From Ginglymostoma cirratum (lineage: Eukaryota), in the NCBI GenBank assembly GCA_024137785.1, contig JAHRHZ010000133.1:67132245-67196244 (forward strand): 64,000 nt of DNA, in the 5' to 3' direction. Shown here one piece after another: positions 4,780 through 59,753 of the stretch. Positions within the stretch are counted from its first letter, which is position 1; the number at the start of each line of letters is the position of its first letter. Below the pieces are notes generated by a model. The model saw only the letters and a list, made by a program, of their open reading frames with translations, had not been told where the DNA came from and made no database searches. The position numbers and the translations under genes are program-made.

Positions 4780-5538
4780 AGGTAAACAAACTGGAGGCTA
4801 GAAGAACACAGCAGGCCAGGCAGCATCTGGAGGAAAGGAGCAGTCAACATTTCGGGTATTATCCTTCTTCAGCCCTGCCGGTTTATTGTAAATGGCATAA
4901 ATGTCGATTCATAAACTGTCACCAGAAATGAAAACAGAGGTCAAGAAAGGGGAGGGAAATGTCTGAGACAGACCAAGTCAATTTGAGGGGGAGGTGGAAG
5001 TTGATAGCCCTCAGTTCTTTTCCTCTCCAACAGCCCCATCCATTCCCCACCACCTCAACGAACCAGTCCTCGCCCTCAATAATTCTCCCCACTTTCTCCA
5101 AATCCAGGGGGTTGCCATGGGCACTCGCACGGGCCCCAGCTACGCCTGCCCAATTGTCTGTAATGTCGAACAGTCCCTCTTCAGTATGTACGCCGGTACT
5201 GTTCCTCAACTCTCCCGCCTTTACATCAATGTCTGCATCGGTGCTGCATCCTGCACCCAGGCTGAACTGGAGCAATTCATCGACTTCACTCACGACCACC
5301 TCACCCTCAAATTCACTTCGTCTATCTCAGACACTTCCCTCCTCTTTCTTGACCTCTGTTTATATTTCTGGCAACAGTTTACACACCAACATTTACTATA
5401 AACCAGCAGTCCTGAAGAAAGGTAATACCCGAAACGTTGACTGCTCCTTTCTTCCAGATGCTGCCTGGCCTGCTGCGCACTTCCAGCCTCTTGTCTGTCT
5501 ACCTTGGATTCCAGCATCTACAGTTTTTTTTTGTCTCT
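4780..5538 (+). mobile_element. Internally deleted Penelope-like retroelement (RT fragment plus hammerhead-bearing terminal repeat) with an inverted ~225 bp duplicate arm
   Basis: ORF 4994-5401 encodes PLE-type RT motifs (FLQIQGVAMGTRTGPSYA; RLYINVCIG as decayed RYIDD; LKFTSSISDTSLLFLDL; then TNIYYKP in another frame). 4780-5005 is a diverged reverse complement of ~5287-5504. Confidence 0.85.
5405..5445 (+). ncRNA. Minimal type I hammerhead ribozyme motif
   Basis: AGCAGTC CTGAAGA A AGGT-AAT-ACCC GAAAC GTT GACTGCT. Perfect 7-bp helix I, core boxes CUGANGA and GAAA, palindromic ACGT helix III. Predicted cleavage after ~5438. The first pair of stem II is mismatched in this copy. Confidence 0.75.
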
Positions 5539-5559
5539 AACCCAGTTGAGGTAACACTT

Positions 5560-5690
5560 CTGAGGAAGGGTCACCGGACCCGAATCGTTAACTGTTTTCT
5601 CCTCCACAGATGCTGCCAGGCCTGCTGAGCTTTTCCAGCAACTTTGTTTTTGTTCCTGATTTACAGCATCCGCAGTTCTTTTGGTTTTTA
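5560..5690 (+). mobile_element. Short PLE-derived hammerhead element, family 2, single arm
   Basis: CTGAGGA A GGGTC-ACCG-GACCC GAATC GTT AACTG. Perfect 13-bp TSD TGAGGTAACACTT at 5547-5559 and 5691-5703. Confidence 0.85.
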
Positions 5691-5719
5691 TGAGGTAACA
5701 CTTGTTTTGGATGGGGTGT

Positions 5720-6012
5720 GAAAACCTAGGGCCTGTTTACTGTCTTGAATGGATGTTAACATCACACGGCACTATTGTGAAAAAGATCACAGGAATACTG
5801 AATATTCACAAACATTGGCCTCCCACTCAACACCACTGAACAGCTGATTATCATCATACTGTTGCTTGTGGGAACTCTCCTTACTTAAACTGGGTGCTAC
5901 TTTTCTTATCTTACAGGAGGTATAATTCAAAAATCATACTTGCCTGGCTGTAAAATGCTTCAGAATATACTGAAATTGAGATAAGGGCTAGATAAATGCA
6001 AGTCTTTCTTTT
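5720..6012 (+). mobile_element. Deu-type SINE 3' part
   Basis: 'ggatgttaacatcacacggcactattg...ggctgtaaaatgcttc...gctagataaatgcaagtctttctttt'. Confidence 0.6.
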
Positions 6013-6871
6013 TGTGGGATGAATACTTAGTACATTTATACAACAATTACATATATGCCTTTTAACAGAAACTTGCTTTAAGCCATTTATTTTATACTTT
6101 ATTCTCTAAAAGGAACTTCTAGACTTGCAAACATGCAAATCATAAATAGACTCACCATCTTATTATTCTTATTGCAAGTCAGAACCAAATGGATTTTCTT
6201 TAATACTATTTTTAATTGTAGACAGTTAGATCAGATCTACTAATCGTGATCTAGCGCAAACACCAAAAATTGAGATTCATTACAAAAAGGCAACAACCAA
6301 GAACTTTTGGAGGATGGAGAAAACGTGCTTTAGAAACATCCCACATAATTAAACACAGGTTATTTTGAACCCTGCAAAAAGCAGGAAATATAAGGCTTCC
6401 CTATTGAGAAAATATCAAACCATGGAATTGGGATGCAACTCCAGCTCCTGAATGACATGGGTCATTCTGGCTTCTGCAATAGTCTCAGTTTTCTCTTAGC
6501 ACCAAGCACACATAGACAATGCTGCATTGCCAAGATCACATGTTTTAAATCAATGTCAGCACCACATTCACTGACTCTCTACTGTGCAGCACACAGCTGG
6601 CCGGGGTGTTTGCAGGTGGTTTCCCACTAGCATCACCCTCCAACCAACCAAAACCCCACCCGTCTGCAATTTTACATGGAGGAGAGTCCTAGAAGGCTGG
6701 CCTGCCCTCTTAGCAACTTAGGCCCCTAAGGAGCTAAATTTCCAAAAGACCTCAACTTTGAGGCAGACAGGGGAGGTGCCTTCTTCAAGGGTCACATTCC
6801 ACTTCAACAATCCCTCCCACCCTGATCTCTCCACTAAGATCCCCAAGGAGTGGTAGACAGGGAGACTGTGT

Positions 6872-6945
6872 TAGAGAGAGAGAGAGATTAAGAAAGACAG
6901 AGACAGCTACAGAAAGAAAGAGAGACACAGTGTGAGAGACAGGGA
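6872..6945. repeat. Imperfect (AG)n/(AGAC)n microsatellite
   Basis: Directly visible AG-rich run. Confidence 0.8.
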
Positions 6946-7814
6946 TAAACAAAATTTTATCTTTATTTAAAAAATGGTGATGAATACTGGAAAATAGTGG
7001 GAGCCAACAGATACACATTCCATTTCTGAGTGCAGGAGCAAGTTTCTCCTTTTCATGTGAATATTTTGTTCCCACCTCCATTTCACTAACTATTTTCTTA
7101 GCTCTGCACACTCTGGTGATCTAAAATGACCTTTCCCTGTAAAATGGTCCATTAATCACTGATTTAATGGGCTGTAATCACATAACAAGCGCCTCACGTC
7201 CTGGTCTATTCTCAAGCATACCTAAGAGAGGGAGGATATGCCAATTCACCGAAGTAAGGCAGCGAAACCAACATCAGCCAGCTACCTTGTTTGAAACTTT
7301 AATCTAAGGCAAACAAGCCAGAGCAGCTGGTGCAAAAGGTTTAATTCAACCACAGTTCCTAATGCCCCACACACAGTCCCATTTAGAGACTGAATGCACC
7401 TTTCATTTTAGATACACTTTTTCATTTACGATTATCTGGAATTTTTGGGCAAGGAATGTAGAATCTGGAAAAGTTTTAGCCATGAGAGATTTAGTCTGAA
7501 CAGGCAGCATGTGCGTTTATAGAAAATTTCTCCAGCCACCTCTTCCTAATCATTATCCAGTGACTCCACTAGGAACTACATGTATGAGGGCAGCATGAAA
7601 CCCAATGGTGAGCTAGAGTGGCAAACATAGCTCATTTTCAACTCCCTGACATCCAATGCTCCAACGCCATGCACTCAGCACCAAGCAAGCAATGAAATCC
7701 CTAACACTCTGTTCAAAATAAAGACAGACACTGAGCCAAACTGAGCTGCCACTTTTCTCAGCTTGTAGGGATTGCTGAAACACATCCAAAAATTTGTCTG
7801 CATTCATACAGAAT

Positions 7815-8160
7815 CTTTAACATTAGCAACATGTTCCAAGGTGCTTTCAGAGGACCACTGTCATGTCATTTGACAGCAAGTGACATAAATAGTTAGGAAC
7901 AGTGACGAGAAGTTTGGTCAGGAGGCAGATTGTGAGGAGCCTCTTAAAAGAGAGGCGGGGCAACAAAGGCAAATGGGTTTAAGGACGGAACGTTCAAGCT
8001 TAGGGTCCAGGTAGCTGATGGTACAGTTATCAGGGGCCAACGACAAAAACAAGGGGGGATGGGTGCAGTGCGGAAGAAGCCAGAATCGGAGGACTGCAGA
8101 GACAGTAGAGATCCAAGTGTTGATGGAAGATTCCGTGATAGGGAGGGGCCATGGAAGACT
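7815..8160 (-). mobile_element. L2-type LINE 3' end
   Basis: 'ccaaggtgctttcagagga...aagtttggtcaggagg...cttaaaagagagg...agcttagggtccagg' is the reverse complement of the L2 tail seen elsewhere. Confidence 0.55.
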
Positions 8161-8934
8161 AGTGATTTTCAGGAGTGAATAACTAACCTACATTAACAAA
8201 AAATGACTGCAGGCTGACCCATGTGCATCAACAGTCACTTGTTTTGGACAATTTAAGGGAACGCCACTGAAACAACGCAAAGACATTAGCAAAAATATTG
8301 TAGTAAATGTCAACTCAGTCAATGAGGCAATCATTAACCCAAATGTGAGATACTGCCCTTGTCATATCCCTTGGCATTAAGAGCAGTAACAAGTTTAATT
8401 GGAATACTGGAATGATTGTCTTATACCTGTCTCTGGGACAGACGTGATTTTGTCTTGCTCACTCTCCTTTTTTTTTAATAAATGACAATTCTAATGCTGA
8501 AGTAATAAGAGGGCAGGTAGTTAATTAACTCAGGGCAGCTATGTATATCCCTACAATGATCCAATATGCAGTAGCCACAGCTTCCTGTCTCACCTTTTTT
8601 GTTTAAAAACCAGCCACATATAAGCACGCAGTTGTCACCTGAGACAATTTCAAGACTGGCGACCATGCAGTATTGCATTCAGATTACTTCCTGTGTCACT
8701 CCTGGTTACAAGCACTTGCCATGAAATTGCGATGGCACAAACAAACAAAACTTTATATATAGTGAATGAGCATTCATTGAGACAATCAATAAAATCTGAA
8801 CAATACCATTTAGTTTCTGCAAATTTACTAGTTTCCATTGACTATGCTTATCAATAAAATGAAGAGGCCTTACCTCTCTCATTCTCTTTATCTAACATAC
8901 TTCAGCACCATAAAATCAATTCTTTTACCCAAAG

Positions 8935-10330
8935 AATCAAAGGTTTTACAGTGCAGGTGGTCATTCAACCTACCGTGTCTGTGCCAGCTCTCCAAATGAG
9001 CACCGCGTACTATCCTCCTGACTTTTCCCTGTAACCCTGTATGCTCCTACCTTCCAAATAGCCATCTAGCCACTTGAATACCTTGATTAAGCCTATGTCC
9101 ACCACAATCTTGGGCAATGCATTCCACTTCAATGTAACTGATCCACTCATTACGCAAACAGATTTATTCTCATATCACTTTTGTTTGTTGGCCAGTATAG
9201 ACATGGTGGGCCAAACGTTGACATTCGCCACATTGCCTTCACATTCTTCCTAAGATGTATTACACTTTAGCTGAAGTCTCCTGTATTAATTTGACATAAC
9301 CTAATTGCTCTTTTATTCTATGCCCCTATTAATAAAGTATGCTTTAATAATTGCACTTTCAAACTTCAATGTCTTATGTACATATATAGACTGGTCCCTC
9401 TATGTACTTTTCAATATTTTTTGTCACTCCATTTTCTTCCTACCAAAATCACAACTCTCCATATTGAGCTTCATCTGTTCCTACCAGCCCATTCCACCAA
9501 CTTGCCTATGGCCTTCAGAAGTACTACAGTAACCTCCTCAGTCTACAATGCGTCCAAATTTCTCATCATCTACAAATTTTGAAATTGTGCCCCGTTTACC
9601 AAAGTCTAAACTATTAATATTTATCAGGAAAAAAAAAAAAGTCCCATGTGAGTGCAGGAGAACGCCAATACAAACACTGCTCCAGGCAAACAAAAATCCA
9701 TTAGCTGAGATAACAAGGTATAGAGCTGGATGAACACAGCAGGCCAAGCAGCATCAGAGGAGCAGGAAAGCTGACGATTCAAGCCTAGACCCTTCTTCAG
9801 AAAGAAATTTCTGAAGAAGGGTCTAGGCCCGAAACTTCAGCTTTCCTGCTCCTCTCGCGCTGCTTGGCCAGCTGTGTTCATCCAGCTCTACACCTTGTTA
9901 TCTCAGATTTTCCAACATCTGCAGTTCCTACTATCTCCAAAAGTCCATTAGCTGTTACTTTCTGTTTCCTGTCACTCAACCAATGCTGTTTCCATGTTTC
10001 CTCTGTTCTTTAACACAAGAGTTAAAACTTTTCTTACAAATCTGTTGTGTATCACTGCATTAAAAAACTTCAGGAAGGCCACGTACAGCACAGATCAACA
10101 CTCTTTGTTAACTCTTCAAAAGCTTTCAGCAAGTTAGTTGAACATAATTTTCTGTTAAGATATCTATGTCGGATTTCCTTAATTAACCCACATTTATCCA
10201 CATGACTATTAATTTTATCCCAAATTGTTTGCAGAAGAGTTTCAACCTTCAAAGTTCAGCTGACTGATTAATAGTGGCATGGCTTATCCTTACACTTTGG
10301 TCTTCAATTACCTTCCTCAGTATCCTTGGA
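8935..10330 (-). mobile_element. Fragmented CR1 LINE (3' UTR plus RT pieces), interrupted by a palindromic element
   Basis: Minus-strand ISKFVDDEKFGRIVD (ORF 9538-9747) and CSTNLLKAFEELTKSVD (ORF 10070-10252). CR1-type 3' end near 8935-9180. Confidence 0.7.
9705..9937. mobile_element. Palindromic PLE-derived hammerhead element, family 1
   Basis: Inverted arms 9705-9803 and 9808-9906, with a ~31-nt tail on the right arm only. Core CTGAAGA-A-GGGTCTAGGCCC-GAAAC at 9811-9835. TSD CAAAA(A/G)TCCATTAGCTG at 9691-9707 and 9938-9954. Confidence 0.9.
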
Positions 10331-10379
10331 TACATCATGCCCAGTCAGACTGACGGGGGTGGGGGCGGTGAGAGATCGC

Positions 10380-24029: not shown

Positions 24030-24950
24030 CCTTTGTTTGACTTTGATTTTATTGTCACATGTACCGAAATACAGTGAAAAGCTCTGTTTACAAGTGGTGC
24101 AGGCAGATCACAGCAAGCAATGGATGTACAGATCAAAAAGACTTAAAGGCATCCAGGTTACATTGCAGGTTACATTATTTGAGGCTAAAGTCCATTCAAC
24201 AGTCTGATAACGGTGGGAAAGAAACTATTCCTGAACCTGCTCGTGCGTGTGTTCAGGTTTCTATATCTTCTGCCTGATGGAAGAGGTTATGGGAGGTCAC
24301 TACCAGGATGCGATGGGTCTTTGATGATGTTGGCGGCCTTTCCACAGCAGCAAGCCATGTAAATTGAGTCCATGGATTGAAGGTTGGCTTCCGTGATGGT
24401 CTGGGCTGTGCACACCACCTTCTGTAGTTTCTTACGGTCCGGGGTACAGCAATTGCCATACCTGGCTGTTATGCATCTGGACAGTATGCTTTCAATGATA
24501 CATCTGTAGAAGTTGAAGGTCATTACAGACATGCCAAATTTCCTGAGCCACCTGAGGAAGAAGACACGTTGTCGCGCCTTCTTAACTGTCGCACCTACGA
24601 GAGAAGTCCAGGACAGGTTGTCAGTTACCGTCATTCCAAGGAACTTGGTGCTCTTCACCCTCTCAACATCAGCTCCACTGATGTAGATGGGGGTGTGCTC
24701 TCCTGCTTTCTTTCTGAAGTCGATGATCAGTTCTTTAGTTTTGCTGATATTGAGACAGATTGTTTCACTGCAACACGTTACCAAGCCCTGTATCTTGACT
24801 CGTTATTATTAGTTATCCATCCCACTACAGTGGTGGCGTCAGCGAACTTGTCAGTGGCATTTGTTCAGAATTTGGCAACAGTTGCAGGTGTACAGAAAGT
24901 ACAGTAGGGGACTGAGGACATATCCTTGAGGGGGCTCCAATGCTGAGTGG
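24030..24950 (-). mobile_element. Rex1/Babar-clade LINE, 5'-truncated RT C-terminus and 3' UTR
   Basis: ORF 24287-24784 reads LNISKTKELIIDFRK...KFLG...NLSW...KKARQRVFFLRWLRKFG...FYRCIIESILSRCITARYGN...KAANIIKDPSHPG. Upstream are decayed APQGYVLSPLLY and KFADATTVVG motifs. Confidence 0.92.
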
Positions 24951-25072: not shown

Positions 25073-25201
25073 AGAGATAAGGAACTGCAGATGCTGGACC
25101 ATTTCTGATGAAGGGTCTAGGCCCGAAACATCAAGCTTTCCTGCTCCTGTGATGCTGTTTGGCCGCCTGTGTTTGTCCAGCTCTGCACCTTGTTATCTCA
25201 G
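25073..25201. mobile_element. PLE-derived hammerhead element, family 1, inverted tail plus one arm
   Basis: Inverted tail 25073-25098, then arm from TTTCTGATGAAGGGTCTAGGCCCGAAAC to TTATCTCAG. Perfect 11-bp TSD CAGAAGCTGAC at 25061-25071 and 25199-25209. Confidence 0.9.
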
Positions 25202-25544: not shown

Positions 25545-25815
25545 AAGGTGATGGTTTGTTCATACTATTGCTAGACTATTAATCTAACAGACTCAGGTCA
25601 CAGGGAACCTGGGCTCAAATCTTGTCATGGTAGGATAAAATTCTGAAAGTAATTAACATACTTAGGTAAAAAGCATCTGGTTCGCTAATGCCATCCTTAC
25701 CTGGCCTGGCCTACATTTGACTCCAGGCCCACAGCAATGGTGTTGACTCTTAATTAACTTCTGGGCAAATGCTGGATTATTGGTGTTGCCGCAACACCAA
25801 CATCCCATCAATATT
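25545..25815 (+). mobile_element. tRNA-derived SINE (same family as 53300-53625)
   Basis: 'ctagactattaatc...gaacctgggctcaaatc...ccatccttacctggcctggcctacatttgactccaggcccacagcaat'. Confidence 0.75.
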
Positions 25816-27864: not shown

Positions 27865-28066
27865 AGATAAAAGGTACTGCAGATGCTGGAGAATCCGAGA
27901 TAACAAGCATGGGGCTGGATGAACACAGCAGGTCAAGCAGCATCATAGGAGCAGGAAAGCTTGACGTTTCGGACCTAAACCCTTCATCAGAAAATTTTCT
28001 GATGAAGGGTTTAGGCCCGAAACGTCAAGCCAGCCCCATGTTCATCCAGCCCCATGCTTGTTATCT
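27865..28066. mobile_element. Palindromic PLE-derived hammerhead element, family 1, young copy
   Basis: Apex CAGAAAA|TTTTCTG has no spacer. Intact cores on both strands (+ 27999-28026; - 27963-27990). Tail on the left arm; internal deletion in the right arm. Perfect 13-bp TSD CAGCCTTCATCAT at 27852-27864 and 28067-28079. Confidence 0.92.
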
Positions 28067-28124
28067 CAGCCTTCATCATGCTTTGCTACATTATAAACCC
28101 AAATCAGCAACAATGGAGTGCTTT

Positions 28125-29467: not shown

Positions 29468-29570
29468 GAGTTACAGTCATACAGATGTACAGCATGGAAA
29501 CAGACCCTTCGGTCCAACTTGTTCATACCGACTAGATATCCTAAATTAACGTTGATCCATTTGCCAACTA
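29468..29570 (-). mobile_element. CR1/HER1-type 3' terminus
   Basis: 'agtcatacagatgtacagcatggaaacagacccttcggtccaac' is the reverse complement of the terminus at ~35960-36015. Confidence 0.75.
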
Positions 29571-30259
29571 CGGTAAAAATCTGGCAAACTGGCATGCAAG
29601 TGCTCAAAACTCCCACATGATTTTTCTTATTCCACTCATTGAGTCAAGAAATAACAAGAGTTATCCACAACAGGGGATCCCTTTGTTGAGACAGCAGAGA
29701 GAGGTTCACATAAATCTTTTGAATGTTCACATGTTAGTGGACCCATAGAAACACTTCACTGTGTTGATGATCCAGCCAGATTATCCAACGCATTGATAAC
29801 AGAGTTAAAAGGAAATTATGAAATAAGCAAAATAAGTAACCTTGCCACAGGTATGTTAAATGGAAAAGGCAGCAAACCAGAAATATAAGTTATTTGAATA
29901 TAAATATATTTTCCTGGTCTGAAAACACACAAAAATAAACAGTTATATCTAATGTACTGTGGGCAAAATAAATTCTACCTCTAAACAGCTATGAAAGAGT
30001 TTGCTCTCTCACACCAAACATTTTCTTTTAAGCCACGTTGCTGCAGAATTTTTTTAAACTTCCTTTCTTATCTAATTAATAATATTTATTGCAAAAGGAG
30101 AATTGATACGGACCCAAGTTCTAACCTGTCCCGTCCAATAGGAAGATTACCGTCTCCTTCAGTGCCTGTGACTACTTTCAGCAAGCATGGCAGAAATAAT
30201 GTGAAAGACTCCAGCTGACTTGCATCTCAGAGGTGTTTTAAATGGATGTTTAAATTGCA

Positions 30260-30550
30260 TTCATTCTCCCACACTGACTGCTATTTACTCCTTTGTCCGT
30301 CCAACTGTTCTTCTCTCTCTTCGGGTTCTATCCCCACTTATTTACTCCTTACTCCCTCGCCCTACCTTACCTTTTGCATAAAAAAAAACTGTTTCCTAGC
30401 TACCATCTGTTGTGAAAAAGGGTCACTGGACCCGAAATGTTAACTCTGATTTCTCCCCACAGATGCTGCCAGACCTGCTGAGCTTTTCCAGCTATTTCTA
30501 TTTTTGTTTCTGATTTCCAGCATCCACAGTTCTTTTGGGTTTTCTTTTTA
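30260..30550 (+). mobile_element. PLE-derived element, family 2, with ~150 bp extra upstream sequence
   Basis: Pyrimidine-rich upstream segment, decayed core gtt-GTGAAAA-A-GGGTC-ACTG-GACCC-GAAAT-GTT-aac, then the family-2 arm and tail. Possible decayed TSD ttaaa(t/g)ggatgt at ~30238 and ~30551. Confidence 0.75.
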
Positions 30551-31475: not shown

Positions 31476-31479
31476 TGGA

Positions 31480-33669: not shown

Positions 33670-33980
33670 AAGCAAAACCTTGCTTTACATAGGGTCTTTC
33701 ATGACCTCGAAGTGTCACAAAGTGAAATTACAGCCAATTGGGGTAGTTTGTTGAAGTGTAGCCATTGTCGTAATGTAGGAAACACTGCAGCCAATTTGCA
33801 CACACCACAAATTCCCTCAAACAGCAATGTGATAATGACCAGATAATCTGTTTTAGCAATGCTGGCTAAATGTTGGCCAGGCCACCAAGAAGATTTCCTT
33901 TGTTCACGTTTGCAACAACATCAAGGGATTTTCACCATCCACCTGAACGGATGGACGGAGCCTCACTATAAAATCTCACC
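33670..33980 (-). mobile_element. Deu-type SINE
   Basis: 'tacagccaattggg...aatgtaggaaacactgcagccaatttgcacac...aacagcaatgtgataatgaccagataatctg...catccacctga'. Confidence 0.8.
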
Positions 33981-35494: not shown

Positions 35495-36016
35495 CTGTGT
35501 GCAATTCTAATATCCCTGCTATAGGAGGGATGTCGTGAAACATGAAAGGGTTCAGAAAAGATTTACAAGGATGTTGCCAGTGTTGGAAGGTTTGAGCTGT
35601 AGGGAGAGGCTGAACAGACCAGGGCCATTTTCCCTGGAGCATCAAGGGCTGAGGGGTGACCTTATAGAGGTTTATAAAACGATGAGGAGCATGGATAGGG
35701 TGAATAGACAAGGTCTTTTCTTGGGAGTCCAAAACTAGAGGGCACAAGTTTAAGGCAAGAGGGGTAAGATTTAAAAGGGACCTAAGGGGCAACTTTTTCA
35801 CACAGAGGGATAGTGCATGTATGGGATGAGCTGCCGGAGGAGGTAGTGGAGACTGGTACAATTACAAGATCTAAAAGGCATTCGAATGGGTCTATGGATA
35901 GGATGTGTTCAGAGGGACATGGACCAAACGGAAATAAATTAATTTTGGATATCTGGACAGCATGGACAAGTTGGACCAAAGGGTCTGTTTCTGTGCTGTA
36001 TATCTCTATGACTCTA
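35495..36016 (+). mobile_element. CR1/HER1-type LINE, 5'-truncated, relatively young
   Basis: ERVQKRFTRMLPVLEGLSCRERLNR...LRGDLIEVYKTMRSMDRVN (ORF 35535-35738) and WDELPEEVVETGT. Tail 'ctctatgactcta'. Confidence 0.92.
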
Positions 36017-36151
36017 AATGTTTGCACCAATTTCTTAAAATACTGCATTCAACTGAGATCCTACAAACCTGGGTGATGCAGGATTAAATCCAAATGGTCG
36101 TTGAGAACATTCTTACAGAAAGTAAATTTTTAATTTACCTAAAACAGTCCT

Positions 36152-39125: not shown

Positions 39126-39934
39126 CCTTGGAATGTGCACTGTAAGGTGGTCAACACTTCTTTAATACCAGGGAGGCTTTGATCTGGGGCGACATTTTAC
39201 TGCACTCCATTCCCCCCCTGCCCTGAGTGTTCTGGGGTCTCTTCTGGCTTGCCTGCGTGGGTCCCAACTTTATACCCTCGCCCTGTCAGGTCTCCTATTT
39301 TTAACAACTGATCTAATCACTTTCATCTTCCTTCACTGGTCATCAAAAATTCCCCATGTACTGGAACTGCTTTAAAGTGCTACTTACAATACTGCATTAA
39401 AAATTAATTACACATGCTATTTTATTGATAGTGCATATCTTAATGAGCACCAGCTGTGCAAGGCAACCAAACTCAATTTAAAGACAGCAATAAAAAAAAG
39501 GCTTCCAAGTCTCTCGCTCCCTTTCATAGTTAAAATGGCAACATCTTGCATGGATTTAAAACAGAGAACTTTGATTTAATACTAAATTTAGATGGGTTTT
39601 TGAAGGGCTGTGCGCATACAGTTTTGACGCTTTAGTAGAGGAGGGGCACACTGTTTTGTTAATCTACATTTAAAGCACCTCCCTGCTTGCCCTTAGAGTT
39701 CAGAACATTATGTGTTTTGAGCCCAAGTAAACAACCAACGTATACTCAGGAGGAACAACTGTGTTAAAAATATCAGGCGATTTTAAATGTTTTCTTTCAT
39801 GTTGAACTGGACAAGCGGCTGTGGCAGGGGGAAATAAAGCAAATCTTTCCTTGTTAAGTTGTACAAAAAGTTCCATTTTGCTAAATATTTGTTCAACAGG
39901 TTATCTGCTGAAAAACAGAAATCAAAATAACTTA

Positions 39935-40524
39935 GAGATAAAAGGTACTGCAGATGCTGGAGAATCCGAGATAACAAGCATGGGGCTGGATGAACACAGC
40001 AGGTCAAGCAGCATCATAGGAGCAGGNNNNNNNNNNNNNNNNNNNNNNNNNNNNNNNNNNNNNNNNNNNNNNNNNNNNNNNNNNNNNNNNNNNNNNNNNN
40101 NNNNNNNNNNNNNNNNNNNNNNNNNNNNNNNNNNNNNNNNNNNNNNNNNNNNNNNNNNNNNNNNNNNNNNNNNNNNNNNNNNNNNNNNNNNNNNNNNNNN
40201 NNNNNNNNNNNNNNNNNNNNNNNNNNNNNNNNNNNNNNNNNNNNNNNNNNNNNNNNNNNNNNNNNNNNNNNNNNNNNNNNNNNNNNNNNNNNNNNNNNNN
40301 NNNNNNNNNNNNNNNNNNNNNNNNNNNNNNNNNNNNNNNNNNNNNNNNNNNNNNNNNNNNNNNNNNNNNNNNNNNNNNNNNNNNNNNNNNNNNNNNNNNN
40401 NNNNNNNNNNNNNNNNNNNNNNNNNNCAGGAAAACTTGACGTTTTGGGCCTAGACCCTTCAAGTTTTCCTGCTCCTATGATGCTGCTTGACCTGCTGTGT
40501 TCATCCAGCCCCATGCTTGTTATC
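39935..40524. mobile_element. Palindromic PLE-derived element, family 1, spanning an assembly gap
   Basis: The left arm is nearly identical to 27865-27955. Perfect 14-bp TSD ATCAAAATAACTTA at 39921-39934 and 40522-40535. The apex is deleted. Confidence 0.88.
40027..40426. other. Assembly gap (400 N)
   Basis: Run of N. Confidence 0.99.
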
Positions 40525-41759: not shown

Positions 41760-42848
41760 GCTCTCTCAGCTCCTCCAATGTTGTTAAATTATCAGCCTGG
41801 TGTCTAACATTCACTACGGGATGAGCAGAAATGTTCTCAAATTAAATATCGGTAAGAATGAAGTCAGTTCACTTCGGTTCCTGCTCAAAATTCTTAGGCT
41901 AACGATTCCATCCCTCTCCTTGGCAGTCTGAGATTAAGCTGGTCTATTTGCATCAAATAAAAACAGAAAATGCTGGTTAAACTGAGCTGGTCTGGCAGTA
42001 TTGGGGGTAGAGAAAACAGAGTAACATTTCGTGCCCAGTGACCCTTCTTTGGCATAACGTTCAGTTCTGAAGAAGGGTCACTGTACTTGAAACACTAACG
42101 CTGTTTTCTCCTCACAGATACTGCCAGACCTGCTGAATTTCTCCAGTAAATTCAGCTTGTTTTTTTCTCAGATCTTCAGCATCAGCAATTCTTTGTTTTG
42201 TTTTAGTCTGTTGGTATGTTTGGTGCTACATATAACATTGAAATAGTTTTCCAACTTCATATTCATGACATTGCTAAAGTTGTCCGTTTCCACTTTCTGT
42301 AATATCATCCAACTTTGCCTCGTGTCAGTTTATCTGTCCTGAAACCCTCATCCATGTCTTCAACATCTTGATGGTTCCAACACATTGCTGTTTTTCTCCC
42401 CCACATTCTACCCAACCTAACCCTGAAGTTCAATCTCCCTAACACCCAAATACTCACTGACCAACACTGGCACCTGGTCAATAAACATTTTGATTTTCAA
42501 ACTCCCATCCTCATTTTTAAATCCCTCCATGGTGTCATCCCCCTTTTCTCTGTAATTTTCTCCAGCTCCAAATATTGAGATATCTGGCTTCTTATGCATT
42601 CCCAAATATAACTACTCCTCCCTCAATAGTCATGCATTCAGGTGCACTGACACAAACTCTGGAATAATCTCATTACACCTCTCTGCTTCTGTTGCTTTCC
42701 TCTTTTAAGATATTCATTAAGACAGTCCCTCTTTCCCAAGCTTTTGATCATTCCATTTAATATCTCCTTCTGTAATTTCATGTTGACTTTGTTTTAAAAT
42801 GCCCCTGTGAAGCACCTTACATTCAAAGGGTTATACTGCTGTTGTTCA
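41760..42848 (+). mobile_element. L2-type LINE 3' ~0.85 kb, interrupted by a family-2 palindrome
   Basis: 'ggatgagcagaaatgttctcaaattaaatatcggtaagaatgaag' (WM..N.L.LN..K.E), then 'ctcatccatgtctt' and 'acactggcacctggtc...ttgattttcaa' (HWLPV..RI.FK-like), then an L2 tail. Confidence 0.75.
41954..42205. mobile_element. Palindromic PLE-derived hammerhead element, family 2, older copy
   Basis: Arms ~41954-42050 and ~42063-42165, with a tail on the right. Core CAGTT-CTGAAGA-A-GGGTC-ACTG-TACTT-GAAAC. Decayed TSD GTCTATTTGCAT / GTCTGTTGGTAT (9/12). Confidence 0.8.
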
Positions 42849-44714
42849 TGGTGCAAGAACAGAGAGAGAAAGCAATAAAATAAATGCCTGATAATTCCTT
42901 CAGTTCTCCACATTCTATCTGTATCCATTATTTCTATGTTCCAATGAGAGATACCCCATCTAGCCCTTTTCTCCCTCTATAACATTCAGTAGCTATTCAG
43001 CTGTAAAGGGTATCACAGCTATATCCAGTCCTACCCATTCTCATCTTGGTTTCACACATCTGCATTTTCAGTTGGTGGCAGTGGGGGGTTGGATATCAGT
43101 CTTAAGTCAAGCCAGTGTCCCCCACCCTCCCATTGTCTCATACCACCATCCAGATGATGGAAGGCAATTAACCATGATAGGCTTCGGTATCTCCATTCTG
43201 CAGCTGCTAGATTTGTGAGCTTTAACCACCAACCTGGAGAAATGCTGTATAAATGTGCAAGAACTGAACAGGCTGAGTGTGGGGCGGGAGCCAGGGGTTA
43301 ACAAGAGAGCACAGATAGTTATGGTGTTAAATTATTTGAATTCAGTCAATTGGAATATCAGAGAAGATGATTTCAACAGCGCTGGAATTAGCTAGTAGTT
43401 AACAATGCTGACAATAGTACAGTCTTTGGCAACCGTACAGTAAACATGGTGCTGCTGCTCCTTGGGTTCCAGTTACAGTAAAATACAAGGCACCCAGCAG
43501 GAAAGACAGCCTTGTTCACAGAGTTGTAACACTCAGCTGGCCTGAAAAGACTACAAAAAGTTGCTCCCTGCAACACACCAGCATCTGAAAGGGTACTTTT
43601 TATCTCCACTTCCCCCCCACCCTCCCATAACAATCGCCAACCTTAGGTGAGGCCAGGTCTGTCCAAAAACCAGTCAGGAAATCATAGCATTAAGGCAACC
43701 ATGCCTTGGCAGAGCTCAATTTGTCAGGTATGACAAGTGGATTTTGACACACAGCCTCCCTTTTCAGACAATTACAGGAGCTTCCTCTCTAAGAAACTAA
43801 GCTTTCAGAGGAGCTTTACTACAGCCACAATGAACAGGCTTCATCCCCTCCTGATAAAATGAACTGCTTTCCCTACCCCATCTCAGACAGAAAAAAAAAG
43901 TATCCAAAAATTGGCAGATTAAAGTGCTCCCTCCTTATTTGAAAAGATCAAGTGACCAGAATGGTCCAACAAGTACTTTTTTTAATACTGCAAGACCAAT
44001 AGTGTTTCTTTCTTGAGGAGTGGAGACAGAAAAACGTTTGCAAAACCTAGTTATTGCGGTTTAATGAAATACATACTATGATTTTTCAAGCCAGTCTTAA
44101 GCAAAAGAAGCGTCCTTTGTTCCCTGCCTAAAACAGTGGTACACTAATATATCTCCAGTATTTCCCTGCAAAAGCTGTCCTACAGCCTCCCCTATGTGGG
44201 AATAGTGACAGTGCTGGTTGAAGCTGCGCAGACTGCAACCAGCAAGCACTGTTGTTTCCACAAGAACCTTCCTGGGTCAAAACAGATTGAAATTACATTA
44301 TCACATCCTTTCAAAATCCCTGTTCCAATCTCCCATTAGTTCAGATTATTTATTTCTACTTCATTCGTGGGGCAATAGGGACGTGGGGAAGGGTGGGGGA
44401 GATTACAAGCAAAACATAAGACACTAAAGATTGCCGAATCTTGCACATACAGTAAAAGTTGCTTTGCAAGATTGCAGTAAGATTTAAAGGACAATGGGAT
44501 CTGACAGCACGATAAATCAAAAGAGATCAATAGTCACGGTGAAACAACAGCGATTCCATCAACCCTGCTGGTTCATTCCAGGTCACTGTTGTTTTTGTTA
44601 AAATAAAATCAGGGTTATCAGTGGCCTTAATCAAAGTGGCGCAGCTCCCAAGACTTAGGGGCTTTGCAATCCATTCAAGTTCCACACAGCAAGATCCCAC
44701 AAACTGCAATTTGA

Positions 44715-44870
44715 GAATGTCCAGATAACCTATTTGAGCTATGCTGGTTGAGGGTTTAAATACTTTCCAGAACAATGGCAAGAATTCCCCACCATTGTCT
44801 GAAATAGTGCCATGGGAATCTTTAATGAGCATATAGGTTTATCATCTCATCCTCAGCACTGACGCTGGGG
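44715..44870 (-). mobile_element. Deu-type SINE fragment
   Basis: 'ccagataacc...atgctggttgaggg...aatagtgccatgggaatctttt'. Confidence 0.55.
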
Positions 44871-48829: not shown

Positions 48830-49470
48830 GTTAACTTTGGGAACGCAGAAGATATACGTTCCATGTAAATACAAAATATCTGTGCATATGCAGTGAATCT
48901 ATTCCCCATGACAATTTCGCAAGGAAGCAGAAGTCATGCTTCAGATTTGCAAAGATCTTGTTAGACCACAGCTGGAGTACTGTAATAAAAGTAATATACT
49001 GCAGGTGCCGGAAATCTGAAATAAAAACAAAGTATTAGAGAAACTCAGCAGGTCTGACTGCATCTGTGGAGGGACAAACAGAGTTACTGTTGGGTCTGAT
49101 AAAAGAGTTTGGTGTCAGTTTGAACATGCAACTTGGGGTAATTAATTTGAAGGGTTCAAAATAATAGGGGAACATATAGAACAGACAGAGAAACTTAATC
49201 TTAGAATCCCCAATCAGCAGAACTATGGACACGGGCAAAAGTTAGAGCCAAAGGAGAGAAGTTAGGAAATTTACACAAAAATTGTGGTAGGCATTTGAAC
49301 TCTTCCACAAAACGCCAAGTGATACTTCATCAATTGTTAATTTTAAAATCTGAAATGGATAAGATTCTTGCCAACCAAAAGCATCAAGGGATCTGGGGGA
49401 AACTTGGAAATATAAAGTTAAGTCAAAGACCAACCATGATTTCATGGAATGGCAAAACAAGTCTCAGTCC
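48830..49470 (+). mobile_element. CR1 3' fragments, interrupted by a family-2 PLE arm
   Basis: 'gttagaccacagctggagtactgt' encodes VRPQLEYC. The CR1 3' end follows after ~49150. Confidence 0.65.
48986..49086 (-). mobile_element. Decayed family-2 PLE arm with tail, hammerhead core absent
   Basis: 'actgcaggtgccggaaatctgaaataaaaaca...aaactcagcaggtctgactgcatctgtggagggacaaacagagtta'. Confidence 0.65.
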
Positions 49471-53299: not shown

Positions 53300-53625
53300 A
53301 AAATTCACTGGCGGGATGACCCTGCAGCATTTATTGCCCAGAGGACAGTTCAGAGTCAACCACATTGCTGTGGGTCTGCAGTCACATGTAGGCCAGACCA
53401 GGTAAGGATGGCAGTTTCCTTCCCTAAAGGACATTAGTTAACCAGATAGGTTTTTTCACGACAATGAATGGATTCACGGTCATCATTAGGCTCCTAGTTC
53501 CAAATATTTTTATTGAATTCAAATTCCACCTGCCGTGGTGAGATTCAAACCCGGATCCCCAGAACATTACTTCGGTCTTTGGATTAAACAGTCCAGCAAT
53601 AATACTGCTAGGCCATCACCTCCCC
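53300..53625 (-). mobile_element. tRNA-derived SINE, full length
   Basis: Minus-strand head 'ggggaggtgatggcctagcagtattattgctggactg...ccgggtttgaatctcacc'. The body matches 25545-25815. Confidence 0.85.
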
Positions 53626-54169: not shown

Positions 54170-54358
54170 CACAGTGTGGAGCTGGAGGAACACAGCAGGC
54201 AAGGCAGCATCAGAGGAGCAGGAAAGTTGACGTTTCGGATCGGGACCCTTCTTCAGAAATGTGCTGTCCCGCTCCTCTGATGCTGCTTGGCCTGCTGTGT
54301 TCCTCCAGTTCCACAGTGTGTTGTCTCTGACTCCAGCATCTGCAGTTCTTGCTATCTC
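54170..54358. mobile_element. Palindromic PLE-derived hammerhead element, family 1 variant
   Basis: Minus-strand core CTGAAGA-A-GGGTC-CC-GATCC-GAAAC-GTC at 54229-54256. The right arm lacks the core and carries the tail. TSD CTAA(T/C)TCAAGA(A/T)TCAT at 54154-54169 and 54359-54374. Confidence 0.88.
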
Positions 54359-54624
54359 CTAACTCAAGATTCATACTGTTAGTCCTCTCCTACTTCATGC
54401 ACTTTGAAGCAGGGTCTAGCAGTTACTAGTTCAGCAGCCTTTGGAATCGGCATGGCAAGAGAACCACATTTGTTTGCAAAAGAACCAAACCTGCAGAATA
54501 AGCAAAGATTCCTCACACATGCCCAAGGCAAGCACATCATATTTGGATTATTTCATCAGGACACCACAAAGAAAGGTGGAGGAAGAACACAGCCTATCGC
54601 GTAGACATCATGCCACTTTTCATT

Positions 54625-54836
54625 GAGTCAAGTTGCCATAGTCTTACTAGACAACAGGGTTACTTTCTCATTAGAGAAAGGCAACTGGTGGTGATTTAAC
54701 CTGGGAACCACCACACCTCAGGCAAGGGGAGTGGTTAAGAAGGGGAGTCCTTCATGGTTACAAGGGATTGAACCTACTGTTGGCATCACAACGCTTTGCA
54801 AACCAACCATCCAGCCAAGTGAACTAAACCGACCCC
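54625..54836 (-). mobile_element. tRNA-derived SINE (another family)
   Basis: Minus-strand head 'ggggtcggtttagttcacttggctggatggttggtttgc...ggttcaatccc'. Confidence 0.6.
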
Positions 54837-55905
54837 GAATGCTTTGCATGAAGCACTGCATGTCTCTTCTCAATGTTTCAATTAAAAACGTCAGAAGAGG
54901 CAGAATTTTAAAAGAGAAAGCAATTGCTTATTAATCCCTATCTCAGTGGATTGGTCAGGGTTGGAAGTGGGGGCTGCTGTTTTTCCTCAACCTGCTTCTG
55001 CTCCATCCATAATTAAACTGCAAGAACATCCGTACAATTTGCTTAGTATTCCAAGTACTGTATAAAAGCAAGTCGCATCCAACTTTAAAATGGCCTCAGT
55101 GATAACACCTCAGGGAAGCAATATGGTGCAGGTTTACTGACAGTGTCCTCATTCGGTATAGCATTTCTAAGGTTTCACTTCAGCACATCATCAAAACATG
55201 GGCTTATCATTTATTTAATATTTCTTGCAACTGCTTCTCTTCTCTTCAGCATGCCAAACCACTTTGTTCACTTTCTTAAAAAATAACTGCCACTGTGTTT
55301 TCATTAAGAGTCGCTCAGCGTTTGTTTTTATATTAAACATGCAAATCCAGCTGAAGCAGTACAGAGCCATGTCAGACTCAAAGGCGAATTGAGTCAGCTC
55401 ACTCTCTCTGCACCAACAGTGCACAGCTATATGCCGGTCAGAATTTAGCTAGGACTTGAAACGAGAGTCAGCATCCAGAAATCGCAACCTTCGGTAGTTA
55501 CAAGCAACAAGACCCTTGACTGATGTTTGTAACAAGAACTTAAGAGGTTTTCAAGACCTAGTCTTTGAGGGGCTCTGATAGATGTGTACTTCTAAAGAAA
55601 ACAAAATGTAGCAGTTTTGAAGAAAAGCATACGCGAGGTCACAATGAATCTGGCAGAAGATCTATGCGGCACCAGCAACAGTAAACCTGAGACATTCCAA
55701 GACAGGAACTTCAAGCTCAGTCTGTTATGCACAATCTTATGATGTGTTCAGCCATAAAATGCAATACGAGAGAGAAACTAAGCAACTCAAATAAACAGCC
55801 TCCAGACACTCCACTCAGCTTTCAACATTAAGCCTGCTTGAAAATCAGAATGAAACTGGACAGTGAATATCTCAGGCAGTGCTGGAGCCTAAATGAGTAA
55901 TAGAA

Positions 55906-56489
55906 TGTGGGGCTGGATGAACACAGCAGGCCAAGNNNNNNNNNNNNNNNNNNNNNNNNNNNNNNNNNNNNNNNNNNNNNNNNNNNNNNNNNNNNNNNNN
56001 NNNNNNNNNNNNNNNNNNNNNNNNNNNNNNNNNNNNNNNNNNNNNNNNNNNNNNNNNNNNNNNNNNNNNNNNNNNNNNNNNNNNNNNNNNNNNNNNNNNN
56101 NNNNNNNNNNNNNNNNNNNNNNNNNNNNNNNNNNNNNNNNNNNNNNNNNNNNNNNNNNNNNNNNNNNNNNNNNNNNNNNNNNNNNNNNNNNNNNNNNNNN
56201 NNNNNNNNNNNNNNNNNNNNNNNNNNNNNNNNNNNNNNNNNNNNNNNNNNNNNNNNNNNNNNNNNNNNNNNNNNNNNNNNNNNNNNNNNNNNNNNNNNNN
56301 NNNNNNNNNNNNNNNNNNNNNNNNNNNNNNNNNNNCAAGCAGCATCATAGGAGCAGGAAAACTTGACGTTTCGGGCCTACCGAAACGTCAAGTTTTCCTG
56401 CTCCTATGATGCTGCTTGGCCTGCTGTGTTCATCCAGCCCCACACCTTGTTATCTCGGATTCTCCAGCATCTGCAGTACCTTTTATCTC
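55906..56489. mobile_element. Palindromic PLE-derived element, family 1, spanning an assembly gap
   Basis: Inverted arms with a deleted apex (tcgggccta|ccgaaacgtc) and a tail on the right. TSD TGAGTAA(T/C)AGAATGTG at 55894-55909 and 56490-56505. Confidence 0.88.
55936..56335. other. Assembly gap (400 N)
   Basis: Run of N. Confidence 0.99.
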
Positions 56490-56839
56490 TGAGTAACAGA
56501 ATGTGCTGTATTTGACTTAGCTACCATATTTTGTACAGTCCAATAGTAGTGATACTTCAAAAGTACCTTAATGTCTGTAAAGAGCTGTAGGAAGGCCTGA
56601 GATTTTGACCAGTGCCAAAAATGTAATCTATTTTCTTCAACAGTGGTGAGCAATCAAAATCACTAAATTTTAAGAGGTTAAACTTTGGATTTGAGATGAA
56701 TTTTTGAAAAGGTTAGAAGTGGGAATAAAAGTAATTACCAGAAGCACTCTGTGGTAGCAATAGCAAAAACCATGGCACTAGGATGGGTTAATCTCTATTT
56801 ATTTCCAAACCATGACTGTACCAAAGCAGAGTGACAGAT

Positions 56840-56970
56840 TTTCTGAAGAAGGGCCTAGGCCCGAAACGTCAGCCTTCCTGCTCTTCTGATGCTGCTTGGC
56901 CTGCTGTGTTCATCCAGCCCTACACCTTGTTATCTCAGATTCTCCAGCATCTGCAGTTCCTACTATCTCT
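56840..56970 (+). mobile_element. PLE-derived hammerhead element, family 1, single arm with tail
   Basis: TTT-CTGAAGA-A-GGGCCTAGGCCC-GAAAC-GTC (core 56843-56870), then the full arm and tail. TSD unclear. Confidence 0.9.
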
Positions 56971-57109
56971 AACAGAATGTAACACTTGGTTTTATACTTG
57001 TAATTTTACCTGAAAATGGGCTCACTCCCTTCCAGGTCATCTTGTGACGTGGGCAAGACTCTTCTCAAGTAGGAAAGTGTGAAAATCAAAAAGTGTGATT
57101 CACGAGAGA

Positions 57110-57185
57110 AAACAAAAGAGAGAAGACTGCTAAAGGTGGGAATCATGAATTAGAAAAGAAAATGCTGGAGGTACAAGTCAGGTCT
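57110..57185 (-). mobile_element. Decayed family-2 PLE tail fragment
   Basis: 'aagactgctaaaggtgggaatcatgaattagaaaagaaaatgctggagg...tcaggtc'. Confidence 0.3.
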
Positions 57186-57449
57186 ATACAGAGAACAAGG
57201 CCGTTTATCAGAACTGTGCACCACTGAACGATCTACTGTCCAAACATTACAAACCTTTTTTCGCTCTTTTTCTGGAGGTGAGGGAAATCTTGCTCTCATT
57301 TCCCCCTCCACGACCCTGTCCTTTACATAAACATCCTACAGAACACAAAAAGGAGAAGCAAGTAAGATCTAAGTCTCAAAAACCTGCATTTCTATATTAT
57401 CCGTCATGGTTGCAGGCATCTCAAAGCAGTTCACCACTAACTACTGTAG

Positions 57450-57665
57450 GCAGTCACTGCTGTCAAAATGGCAGCCAATGTGCACATAGTTAGATCCTGC
57501 AACAGAATAATTACCAGATAATCTATCTTTTGGCTTTGGGGGAGGCATAAATACCGGCCACAATGTCAGGGATAAATCCTCCGTTCACTGAAAGCACACC
57601 CATAGGACCTTTTGCATCATCCTGAGCAGACAGGCAGGCCCTCAATTTAAAGACCCATCTGAATA
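57450..57665 (-). mobile_element. Deu-type SINE fragment
   Basis: 'ggcagccaatgtgcacatag...ccagataatct...cctgagcagacaggcaggccctcaatttaa'. Confidence 0.55.
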
Positions 57666-57960
57666 TATACTACCACATAGAAGAGTTTTTGTTTCAATGC
57701 CTACAACCCCATCCCCACATACCCAACATTCAACTTCTGCTACTGCAGCATAGCAACTGAACAGAATTGCCTGTGTGGGGTATGGCTCTTATGAATACTG
57801 GGTTTCATCCAACACAAAACTGCCACGCTCCGGAGAGTCATTCTGAACCTGGAAGATTTAGGGTCATCTCACGTAGCCATGAAGTCGACTTTTAATCTCA
57901 TTATCCAAAAAAATTAAACGATATGTTGCTAAGATTCCAAACACAGGGTAAAAAATGAGA

Positions 57961-58061
57961 ATAAAAAAAACTTTCCAAATATCCAGCTGCACTACACAAT
58001 CTGCTTTGGATTAAAAAATACTTTCCAAATATACAGTTATATTACGCAATCTGTTTTGGAT
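57961..58061. repeat. 50-bp tandem duplication (2 diverged copies)
   Basis: 'ctttccaaatat...caatctg.tttggat' at 57971 and again at 58021. Confidence 0.85.
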
Positions 58062-58454
58062 AACTCATTAGTCCATCTATTCTTGTCCCCACTTCTAATT
58101 CTTAATTCCCCACCCTGTTCTGTCACATTTGTTTCCTGGATACATCCTTTTTAAACAATTACCCAGACAGCACTTCAGAGCTTGAAGGGGCACCATATAT
58201 CACAGAATCCAAAAAGGAGACATTTGCCTCATGTTCGTTTGTTATTGAATGCATAATCTGCAACATCTGCAATCCTTAACAAAAAGGATACATAAGTCTG
58301 TATAATATTCTAATAACTTTCTCGATATAAAACCACAGACTAATTTGTAAAAATTTGGATCAAGGAAATGCTGCAGAGACTCCTCTATTTACAGCTCTGA
58401 ATGAAACAGGTGCTGTGATTTTTATTCTATTCATAGCATGACATCAATAACACC

Positions 58455-58750
58455 ACCAATTTTTATAGCACCTTTTGAAAGTATCCCAAAGCCAAACCTC
58501 AGAAAAGTCTTCAAACAAAATTGACACCAAGTCACAGAGGCTGGAGTGCCCACAAGACAGGTTTGAAAGTGTGTCTTAAGAGGATGAAAGAGAGATAGGT
58601 TTGATGAAGAAATTCCAGAGCTCGCAACCTGCATAACATGGTCAGCAGTGGTGGAACGATTCAAATAAAACCAAGGATGCACAAAAGTCACACAGAGATG
58701 TCAAGGGATTGAGGGCTGCAACAGGTTATGGGATAAGAAGAGCTGATGCC
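58455..58750 (-). mobile_element. L2-type LINE 3' end
   Basis: 'tttatagcacctttt...aaattgacaccaagtcaca...gtgtcttaagagga...gaaattccagagct'. Confidence 0.6.
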
Positions 58751-59064
58751 ATACGGAAGGGTGCTATGAATGCGAACGCGAGCTCAAACTCAAACTGGAG
58801 TCAAAATCACTGAAAATTCAGTTTGGTGTTTGGAGCGACTAGTTCCCAGTCAGTCCCAAATCTCGGACTTCAGAGCAAGTGAGAGCTGATCGACATTCCC
58901 GTGTGTGGTAAGGGAGACCTGATGTTAGTGAATTCATAATCAGTTCAACAATGGTTGCCAAGGTACTGATGTCATCATAGATCCAATTCTGAACTGCTTT
59001 ATAATCGAAAGTCTCCAAGAAATTAAAAACTACATTCAGACTCAAGGATGTTCCACCTCAGTGT

Positions 59065-59165
59065 GTTAACTGGCTTCTTAACTCTCAAAAGCTGACTAAC
59101 CTGATGTGAACTGGCAGCACTTTTAATTTTCATTTTCAGATTTTCAGTCTCCTCAAAATTGCTTT
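59065..59165 (+). mobile_element. Highly decayed family-2 PLE arm
   Basis: 'tgttaactggcttct...acctgatgtgaactggcagcactttt...ttcagattttcag'. Confidence 0.3.
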
Positions 59166-59657
59166 TTTAAAATCAAGATTCTAACCAGAATCAAAACTCT
59201 CTCAAATTCAACGTGATTCCTCTTTTCAATTGATCAAACACCTTAGCCACTATGATAAGACACCACAGCTTTTATCAGTCCCAGCTATACACAAGGGAGA
59301 GATAACAGACAGTGCACTGAAAATCCAAGTCAGTTTAATTGCAGCCTTCAATGCAGTCCCAAGTAAACCTGAGGGAGGTGAAGAATACCACAGTTGAGTT
59401 ACAACAGTGTACAGTAACAGTGTGATCCATTTACTTCATCACAATCTCAATTTGTACACAAGTGCACTGATGTCTATAACATTCAGACTGACAGAACTGA
59501 AATAATTTTAGACTTCTCGCCTTTACCATGGCCTTTACTCTCTGTCGAACCCCTCTGCCTCACTCTCAGTTCCTTCAATCTTTGGTCATTTATACAGTAT
59601 TCACCGTTATACCTGACTGATGGCTAAAGCACAGTAACACATTTAGTTAAAAACCTA

Positions 59658-59753
59658 AGATAACAAGGTGTAGAGCTGGATGAACAAAGCAGGTCAAGCA
59701 GCATCAGAGGAGCAGGAAAGCTGACATTTCGGGCCTAGACCCTTCTTCAGAAA
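59658..59753 (-). mobile_element. PLE-derived hammerhead element, family 1, single arm without tail
   Basis: Minus-strand core CTGAAGA-A-GGGTCTAGGCCC-GAAAT-GTC. 9-bp TSD AAAACCTAA at 59650-59658 and 59751-59759. Confidence 0.88.

Follow-up and report, generated by a model that had tools for sequence, protein, structure and literature searches.

A stretch of 64,000 nucleotides from the shark Ginglymostoma cirratum (assembly GCA_024137785.1, contig JAHRHZ010000133.1, positions 67,132,245 to 67,196,244; hereafter the window) contains a dozen short copies of a repeat that carries the motif of a hammerhead ribozyme and resembles the end of a Penelope-like element (PLE). The question raised by this locus is where such copies, several of which are palindromes made of two mirrored arms, come from. 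According to the original prediction, they are non-autonomous elements similar to short interspersed elements (SINEs), reduced to the ribozyme and the 3' end of a PLE, mobilised in trans and inserted as ready-made hairpins. Our analysis points to a different origin: taken as a whole, it is likely that these stubs represent the first 97-131 nucleotides of the transcription unit of PLEs encoding a reverse transcriptase (RT) and a GIY-YIG endonuclease, each of them having been made separately by an RT that began inside a capped RNA of the element and continued off its 5' end.

An arm of 95-135 bp, or a pair of arms, is present at all 12 positions where one had been predicted (Table 1), and the arms, previously assigned to at least two families, fall into three (A, B and C). 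Positions within the arm are counted from the site at which 5' ends pile up, +1, which is the first base of hammerhead helix I. Target-site duplications (TSDs), called at a score of at least 9 (chance rate of 0.3% per site in 977 random windows), flank 9 of the 12 copies, being 9-17 bp long and unrelated in sequence, as had been claimed for most of them; by the same search, none was located for the copies at 4780, 41954 and 56840. Beyond the window, a sample of 1,221,157 readable bases (1.22 Mb) was used, consisting of 21 of 40 random 10-kb loci, the window, its neighbours and seven blocks; the other 19 random stretches, all N, were dropped, and the later blocks lie mostly beside readable stretches, so that the sample is not strictly random. 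It contains 310 arms under strict settings and 444 under lenient ones, covering 3.4% of the sampled DNA, from which a genome total of about one million arms is extrapolated if the sample is typical. The exact 31-letter core of family A occurs 58,553 times in the 4.36-Gb assembly.

The PLE origin, for which complete elements carrying the arm had been named as a check, is borne out by copies of this genome that encode both RT and GIY-YIG domains. The RT fragment of the copy at 4780 gave 29,351 first-look candidates in the genome, and in 20 loci picked for their long open frames an arm was found on the strand of the frame, at or near its 3' end (A-type in 19, C-type in one). In locus L026 an arm of family A lies directly downstream of an 892-codon frame with RT and GIY-YIG domains (GIY-YIG, E 2.5e-10; RVT_1, E 1.8e-6, below Pfam's curated cut-off); both domains are also present, with weaker scores, in L029, and among six frames compared with Pfam four matched RVT_1 and two had no match. 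Between the RT and the endonuclease of L026 there is a CxxxxCxxC stretch which, by motif alone, fits the description of the Neptune clade (PMC8557442), and the parent elements may, by this motif, be Neptune-like. Of 15 family C loci, 14 have matches to PLE RT near the arm, and in family B the region upstream of the arm shows RT homology in 7 of 12 loci.

The opposite end of the elements also bears the arm. A search with the DNA encoding the N-terminus of the open reading frame (ORF) returned 30 loci, nine of them continuous into an arm whose first box lies 232 nt upstream; six of these nine begin at -1 to +2, with no element sequence further upstream, and three retain the pseudo-long terminal repeat (pLTR). 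The order pLTR, arm and ORF start that characterises a partial tandem is present in L243, L247 and L260. Taking into account that the ends of long copies and the ORF-start loci both carry it, the arm both terminates every insertion and opens the transcription unit, as is expected when RT starts internally (PMC11167929). Moreover, 30,890 of the 58,553 exact young family A cores, about half, retain upstream pLTR bases; therefore, ordinary PLE insertions form a continuum, with the short copies at one extreme. By every structural test run, the elements of the window belong to the endonuclease-bearing (EN+) class of PLEs.

Two further observations were made on these long copies. In L243, L247, L244 and L242 (four of four), a short frame runs from the arm (approximately +54 to +135), in phase with the main ORF, and is closed by a TGA at the tail end; for the main ORF, the following ATG, near +172, is the likely start, and the short frame is possibly an upstream ORF or is used by read-through. 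In L256, an inverted family B tail lies just upstream of +1 of an ORF-bearing family A copy, through either a nested insertion or a rare mixed-family event.

The first boundary of the stubs is a wall at their 5' side. Among 266 clean 5' ends in the sample, 80 fall at 0 to +5, 11 at -5 to -1, 10 at -49 to -6 and 31 further upstream, and downstream of +5 they are spread in declining numbers. Near -30, the long copies contain TATTTAT (family A), CATATAAA (B) or CTTTAT (C), and in all three families a CA dinucleotide occupies -1/+1, which recalls the TATA and initiator consensus motifs. Judging from these motifs, the pLTR would hold an RNA polymerase II promoter and +1 would be the RNA start; TATA and initiator have likewise been noted in the rotifer pLTR (PMC3846280).

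The base that precedes the wall carries a second signature. Hits with three non-C bases before +1 (the template base at -1 is C) were tallied by hand, giving at -1 G 52, A 39 and T 9 in the first 100 of 3,358 hits of family A, and G 43, A 38 and T 19 in the first 100 of 770 hits of family B. The excess of G over T is significant in both (p 4e-13 and 3e-6, respectively), and remains so in family A (6e-9) once 13 partner-templatable cases are removed; 28 of the 39 family A hits with A at -1 resemble the partner arm, and at -2 the G cases have G in 13 of 52, the background rate. Reading of 34 G-class loci placed the G clearly outside a clean TSD in four family A cases (L205, L207, L211 and L221). 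The excess is strong, and its per-locus proof is thin. For L1 and SVA, an untemplated G is a mark of the copying of capped RNA (PMC4859970). A recurring GGA prefix in family B was considered as a sign of a master element and was discarded, as in six loci it resembled a local repeat of the first bases of the arm.

At the other side, the 3' ends form two groups, one around +97 and one around +131, and the breakpoints of contigs from other runs are found at +2, +97 and +131. The interval between both ends corresponds to the tail of 30-40 bp described in PLEs (PMC8557442, PMC3846280). Among the 444 arms there are 62 head-to-head pairs, plus 11 further pairs spanning gaps, against three tail-to-tail pairs and seven same-strand neighbours within 45 bp; no head-to-tail tandem array of hammerhead units was found in the window. 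The copies had been described as often palindromic, which is true of the window, where two arms are present in 7 of 12 copies (the remainder being one copy with only an inverted tail and four single arms), and is not true of the wider sample, in which two-armed copies are a minority. Of 47 classifiable pairs, 41 have a tail on exactly one of their two arms (p about 1e-7), that is, the arms are asymmetric and end at the two known RT start sites. This difference between the outer ends, together with the variable length of the TSDs, upholds the earlier view that these copies are retro-insertions and not miniature inverted-repeat transposable elements (MITEs).

The palindromes are also individual events. 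The centres of all 62 differ, none of the pairs is of mixed family, and four junctions searched genome-wide, allowing 2-3 mismatches, gave one occurrence each, a test that covers two-armed copies only and not single-arm ones. Since the centres are all different and the tested junctions unique, the mirror half must have been built anew at each insertion. Partner arms agree at 157 of 173 subfamily sites, versus 58% for shuffled partners.

These results bear directly on the proposal of a SINE-like family that is transcribed from its own copies and re-copied in trans, palindrome included. In its favour, the stub contains all the cis signals that the RT likely needs (both start sites); a common 5' end is seen in around 40% of the high-identity arms (67 of 160 start at +5 or less, counting long copies too); PLE ends are able to mobilise foreign sequence in trans (PMC3846280); and non-autonomous retrozymes derived from PLEs have been described (bioRxiv 2026.07.22.740005). 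However, a ready-made hairpin would not give 62 distinct centres out of 62 and four unique junctions out of four, and the asymmetry of the tails, the occurrence of the same 5' end on ORF-bearing copies and the pLTR continuum, with long counterparts carrying the upstream pLTR for the short subfamilies seen, are also opposed to it. Nor was a SINE head (tRNA, 5S or 7SL) found, the window having no tRNA gene and no such Rfam match and the whole arm being PLE sequence. This part of the original prediction is thus considered improbable, while some single-arm copies may have been re-mobilised in trans.

An equally improbable explanation is the random 5' truncation of long PLE cDNAs, with palindromes arising by fold-back self-priming of cDNA or of antisense RNA. 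Arm-to-arm similarity is high, starts are also spread over +6 to +100, and antisense self-priming has been proposed for rotifer PLEs from their palindromic junctions (PMC3846280). Nevertheless, random truncation is not expected to produce a spike behind an empty upstream zone (8.3 starts per nt at the spike versus 0.23 upstream of it); fold-back would copy the tail or stop anywhere, but the second arm ends at the other RT start in the 41 one-tailed pairs; and an antisense template would leave the sense-strand G at -1 unexplained.

The hammerhead itself was identified by its boxes and by its pairing. The motif CTGANGA-N5-35-GAAA has 23 matches in the window against 7.7 +/- 3.1 expected, a number reached in none of 100 shuffles, although the Rfam scan of the window gave no match to a hammerhead model (its sole match, mir-761, with an E of 0.075, was below threshold and taken as chance). 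Over 20 copies of the three families, 87% of the cells of helices I-III are paired, and when the partners are slid this value falls to 48% or less; the first pair of helix I changes from U-A to C-G between families, and the covariation score was equalled by one of 500 shuffles, a control in which relatedness is not taken into account. The extra base before helix II, the pair G10.1-C11.1 and the palindromic CG agree with the minimal hammerhead of PMC4209133. Thus, the minimal hammerhead with a palindromic helix III that had been claimed from sequence inspection holds. The boxes are conserved across families and loop II and the pyrimidine linker vary, and among 181 homology-found arms reaching +5 both boxes are kept in 97 and the full motif in 48; within the window, the 30260 copy has a degenerate first box and the right arm of the 54170 copy lacks the hammerhead.

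Two downstream blocks (approximately +52 to +58 and +108 to +114) are conserved in all families as well and are complementary, giving a 7-bp stem around the +97 start site. This stem could be a candidate structure for RT binding and is only a lead, because it is invariant, so that covariation is absent, and its folding z-scores are weak (-1.9 to +1.2).

The hammerhead leaves no trace of cutting on the insertions: 5' ends show no peak at its cut, with nine starts within 2 nt versus 65 in the 40 flanking nt (p 0.44, n=160), which suggests that in the RNAs serving as templates the ribozyme was mostly uncut. A second accumulation of 5' ends, at +30 to +36, considered as a product of hammerhead cutting, was at base level mostly an alignment artefact, and the refined test was flat, with small peaks at +22 and +47 that are probably indel artefacts of ungapped extension. 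That the 5' wall is a site of RNA processing or stalling (hammerhead cut, splice acceptor or stable structure) and not of transcription start is the least probable alternative, as, despite the pyrimidine-rich, acceptor-like CAG at the wall of families B and C and a D. virilis intron that extends to the 5' end of helix I (PMC4209133), an AG is missing there in family A, no upstream exon is common to the short copies, the hammerhead cut lies some 32 nt downstream, and a helix would stall an RT at its 3' base, not past its 5' end.

In this context, for promoter, cap, priming and joining we infer the following course. A pLTR promoter (the TATA-like motif near -30 and the initiator-like CA) would yield a capped RNA beginning at the first base of helix I. 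The enzyme of the element would nick both target strands, 9-17 bp apart, the two nicks priming at different sites, +97 and +131, likely of a single RNA. Each cDNA would reach the cap, often with a C added opposite to it, or halt earlier, and the two cDNA ends would be joined head to head through microhomology or filler, resulting in a palindrome, an inverted tail alone or a single arm. A +131 cDNA halting at about +100 would leave only an inverted tail, as in the 25073 copy, and a single arm would follow when only one priming succeeds. Stubs, devoid of the upstream promoter, would be dead on arrival. Several of these steps have a precedent in vitro, since an Anolis PLE, Poseidon, nicks and extends both strands, has two adjacent internal RT starts, one at each border of the tail, and does not depend on hammerhead cleavage (PMC11167929). 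Retroviral RTs make a comparable molecule, the strong-stop DNA, a short cDNA from an internal start to the 5' end of the RNA, which is an intermediate and is not integrated. The more general proposition, that PLEs routinely insert strong-stop-like cDNA because their RT-endonuclease primes both nicked strands at two fixed sites of one capped, uncut sense RNA, could equally prove right or wrong.

It has to be noted that several observations weigh against the separate origin of the stubs by this mechanism. Six of the 47 classifiable pairs violate the one-tail rule (five with two tails and one with none), rare alleles are common to both arms in only 6 of 50, and the concordance between arms could derive from subfamilies active at different times or from later gene conversion. 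The transcription start is a prediction from sequence, and family A stubs most often start at +2 with an extra T, not at +1. With regard to the extra G, the G-class loci other than the four cited have it inside the TSD or in partner microhomology, or have no TSD that could be found, and in 4 of 24 family A loci it is readable as the partner arm's own -1 base. Furthermore, about half of the young cores retain the pLTR, so many templates must run through +1; the 5' wall holds for one template class only. Finally, the Penelope promoter of D. virilis is internal (PMC2377424), and therefore the stubs could be transcribed.

Much of this architecture is already in print, namely the inverted pLTR, the tail, the solo pLTRs and the dispersed minimal hammerheads. 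The EN+ PLEs described in PMC3846280 and PMC8557442 share with the copies studied here a parent with RT and GIY-YIG, partial tandems, an inverted 5'-side copy, an optional tail at one end, TSDs of variable length, TATA- and initiator-like pLTR motifs and solo pLTRs. By contrast, the commonest short form here has nothing upstream of +1 and amounts to about a million arms by extrapolation, and the excess of G at -1 and the one-tail rule are absent from the published descriptions examined. Poseidon belongs to another clade and was studied in vitro, and in the passages of PMC11167929 start-site stubs and palindromes are not described as products; the parents here have a CxxC linker. The minimal PLE hammerheads of PMC4209133 have the same core boxes, extra base before helix II, G10.1-C11.1 pair, short helix I and palindromic 15.2-16.2. 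Most of them are dispersed as single motifs, and some lie on opposite strands at distances of 100-700 bp; single motifs were read as probably truncated PLEs, and cleavage was proposed to release the RNA. The stubs here differ from them in retaining the whole uncut ribozyme, with helix I beginning at the inferred RNA start.

Non-LTR retrozymes (bioRxiv 2026.07.22.740005) are also non-coding, derived from PLE ends and endowed with a type I hammerhead, but they form head-to-tail tandem units, in contrast to stubs that are single or head-to-head, each having a TSD of its own. In the twin priming of L1 (PMC4859970), two primers from one staggered break lead to an inversion and an extra G appears at the capped end; however, L1 primes at its poly(A) tail and its second site is random, whereas both sites are fixed here. 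The likenesses to strong-stop DNA and to L1 are to be taken as analogy, not as membership. The literature searched, from which most subscription papers are missing, gave no account of the start-site wall, of the extra G or of the one-tail count, nor are they described in the passages of PMC2377424, PMC5625713, PMC8969392 and PMC5753468. A PDB search gave no match.

The copies of the window are collected in Table 1.

Table 1. Arms and associated PLE sequences in the window (positions are those of the window; TSD, target-site duplication).
Feature	Position	Strand	Remarks
Family C arm, left arm of 4780 copy	4782..4877	-	No tail; hammerhead box at 4872
Mirrored piece of RT fragment	4898..4997	-	85% complementary to 5296-5395
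PLE RT fragment between the 4780 arms	5000..5371	+	64% identity, 107 aa, to the RT of long PLE copy L026
Family C arm with tail, right arm of 4780 copy	5408..5540	+	Starts at +1; no clear TSD
Family B single arm with tail	5558..5692	+	13-bp TSD (5547 / 5691)
Family A palindrome	9705..9938	left arm -, right arm +	Left arm without tail, right arm with tail; 17-bp TSD, one mismatch
Family A arm from +1, no tail, plus inverted tail only (~25073-25099)	25073..25200	+	11-bp TSD
Young family A palindrome	27865..28067		Left arm tailed; right arm tailless, internally rearranged; 13-bp TSD
Family B copy, ~150 bp of upstream pLTR retained	30250..30545	+	First box degenerate; 12-bp TSD, one mismatch
Young family A palindrome	39933..40524		Central 400-N gap 40027-40426; 14-bp TSD
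Older family B palindrome	41955..42205		One tail; no TSD found
Decayed family B arm	48998..49091	-	
Family A palindrome, subfamily with different helix II loop	54162..54359		11-bp TSD, one mismatch
Young family A palindrome	55906..56490		Central 400-N gap 55936-56335; 16-bp TSD, one mismatch
Family A single arm with tail	56839..56970	+	From +2; no TSD found
Family A single arm, tailless	59658..59753	-	From +2; 9-bp TSD

In the 4780 copy, the RT fragment abuts an arm directly, and that junction occurs once in the genome; at 5380-5412 the RT coding sequence passes directly into the arm at +1, and the left arm contains the mirror image of this join, a configuration that looks like a template jump after the RNA end was reached. 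The internal junction of the 27865 copy and the junction of the 54170 copy also have one genome-wide occurrence each. In the latter copy, the left arm starts at +1 and is tailless, and the right arm starts at about +34 and is tailed; contigs of two other runs span its flank and arm, and a joint skipping the element is absent among the contigs listed, so that no empty site was observed there. The inner structure of the 39935 and 55906 palindromes is uncertain because of the assembly gap at the centre of each. In the sample, 19 of 29 assembly gaps have an arm at one edge; young palindromes appear to break the assembly, and so are probably undercounted or distorted. Outside the window, one more arm family, which differs in the sequences of helix II and helix I, is found at G000:C1:1099948-1100141 and 1169446-1169671.

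The window contains other repeats. Four dispersed families unrelated to the arms occupy 3441-3534, 33754-33865 and 44683-44747 (first), 24032-24110 and 60898-60979 (second), 25689-25774 and 53325-53413 (third), and 29471-29549 and 35939-36017 (fourth), and short tandem arrays with units of 50 and 44 bp lie at 57962-58061 and 63855-64000, respectively. On the minus strand, a 171-codon frame at 24287-24802 resembles the C-terminal portion of the RT of a long interspersed element (LINE), its only Pfam match being ALKBH8_N (E 6e-7).

As the class of element and its structure were already known, the surprise of these results is limited. Their practical side is that annotation can easily mistake such arms for MITEs, SINEs or microRNA hairpins. 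The origin of the inverted ends and tails of PLEs, the use of a sense or an antisense template and the role of the hammerhead are stated as open in PMC8557442, PMC3846280 and PMC11167929, and in this genome short events bounded by TSDs are numerous enough for statistical tests of these questions, the 131-nt arm being a small, defined template for the existing in vitro PLE assay. If PLEs do routinely insert strong-stop-like cDNA, some 10^5-10^6 events in one genome would map the promoter and show that the template is a capped sense RNA, the hammerhead at nucleotides 1-37 would be shown to be bypassed during insertion, and the one-tail palindromes, inverted tails and start-site stubs would represent the direct footprint of a two-site priming reaction.

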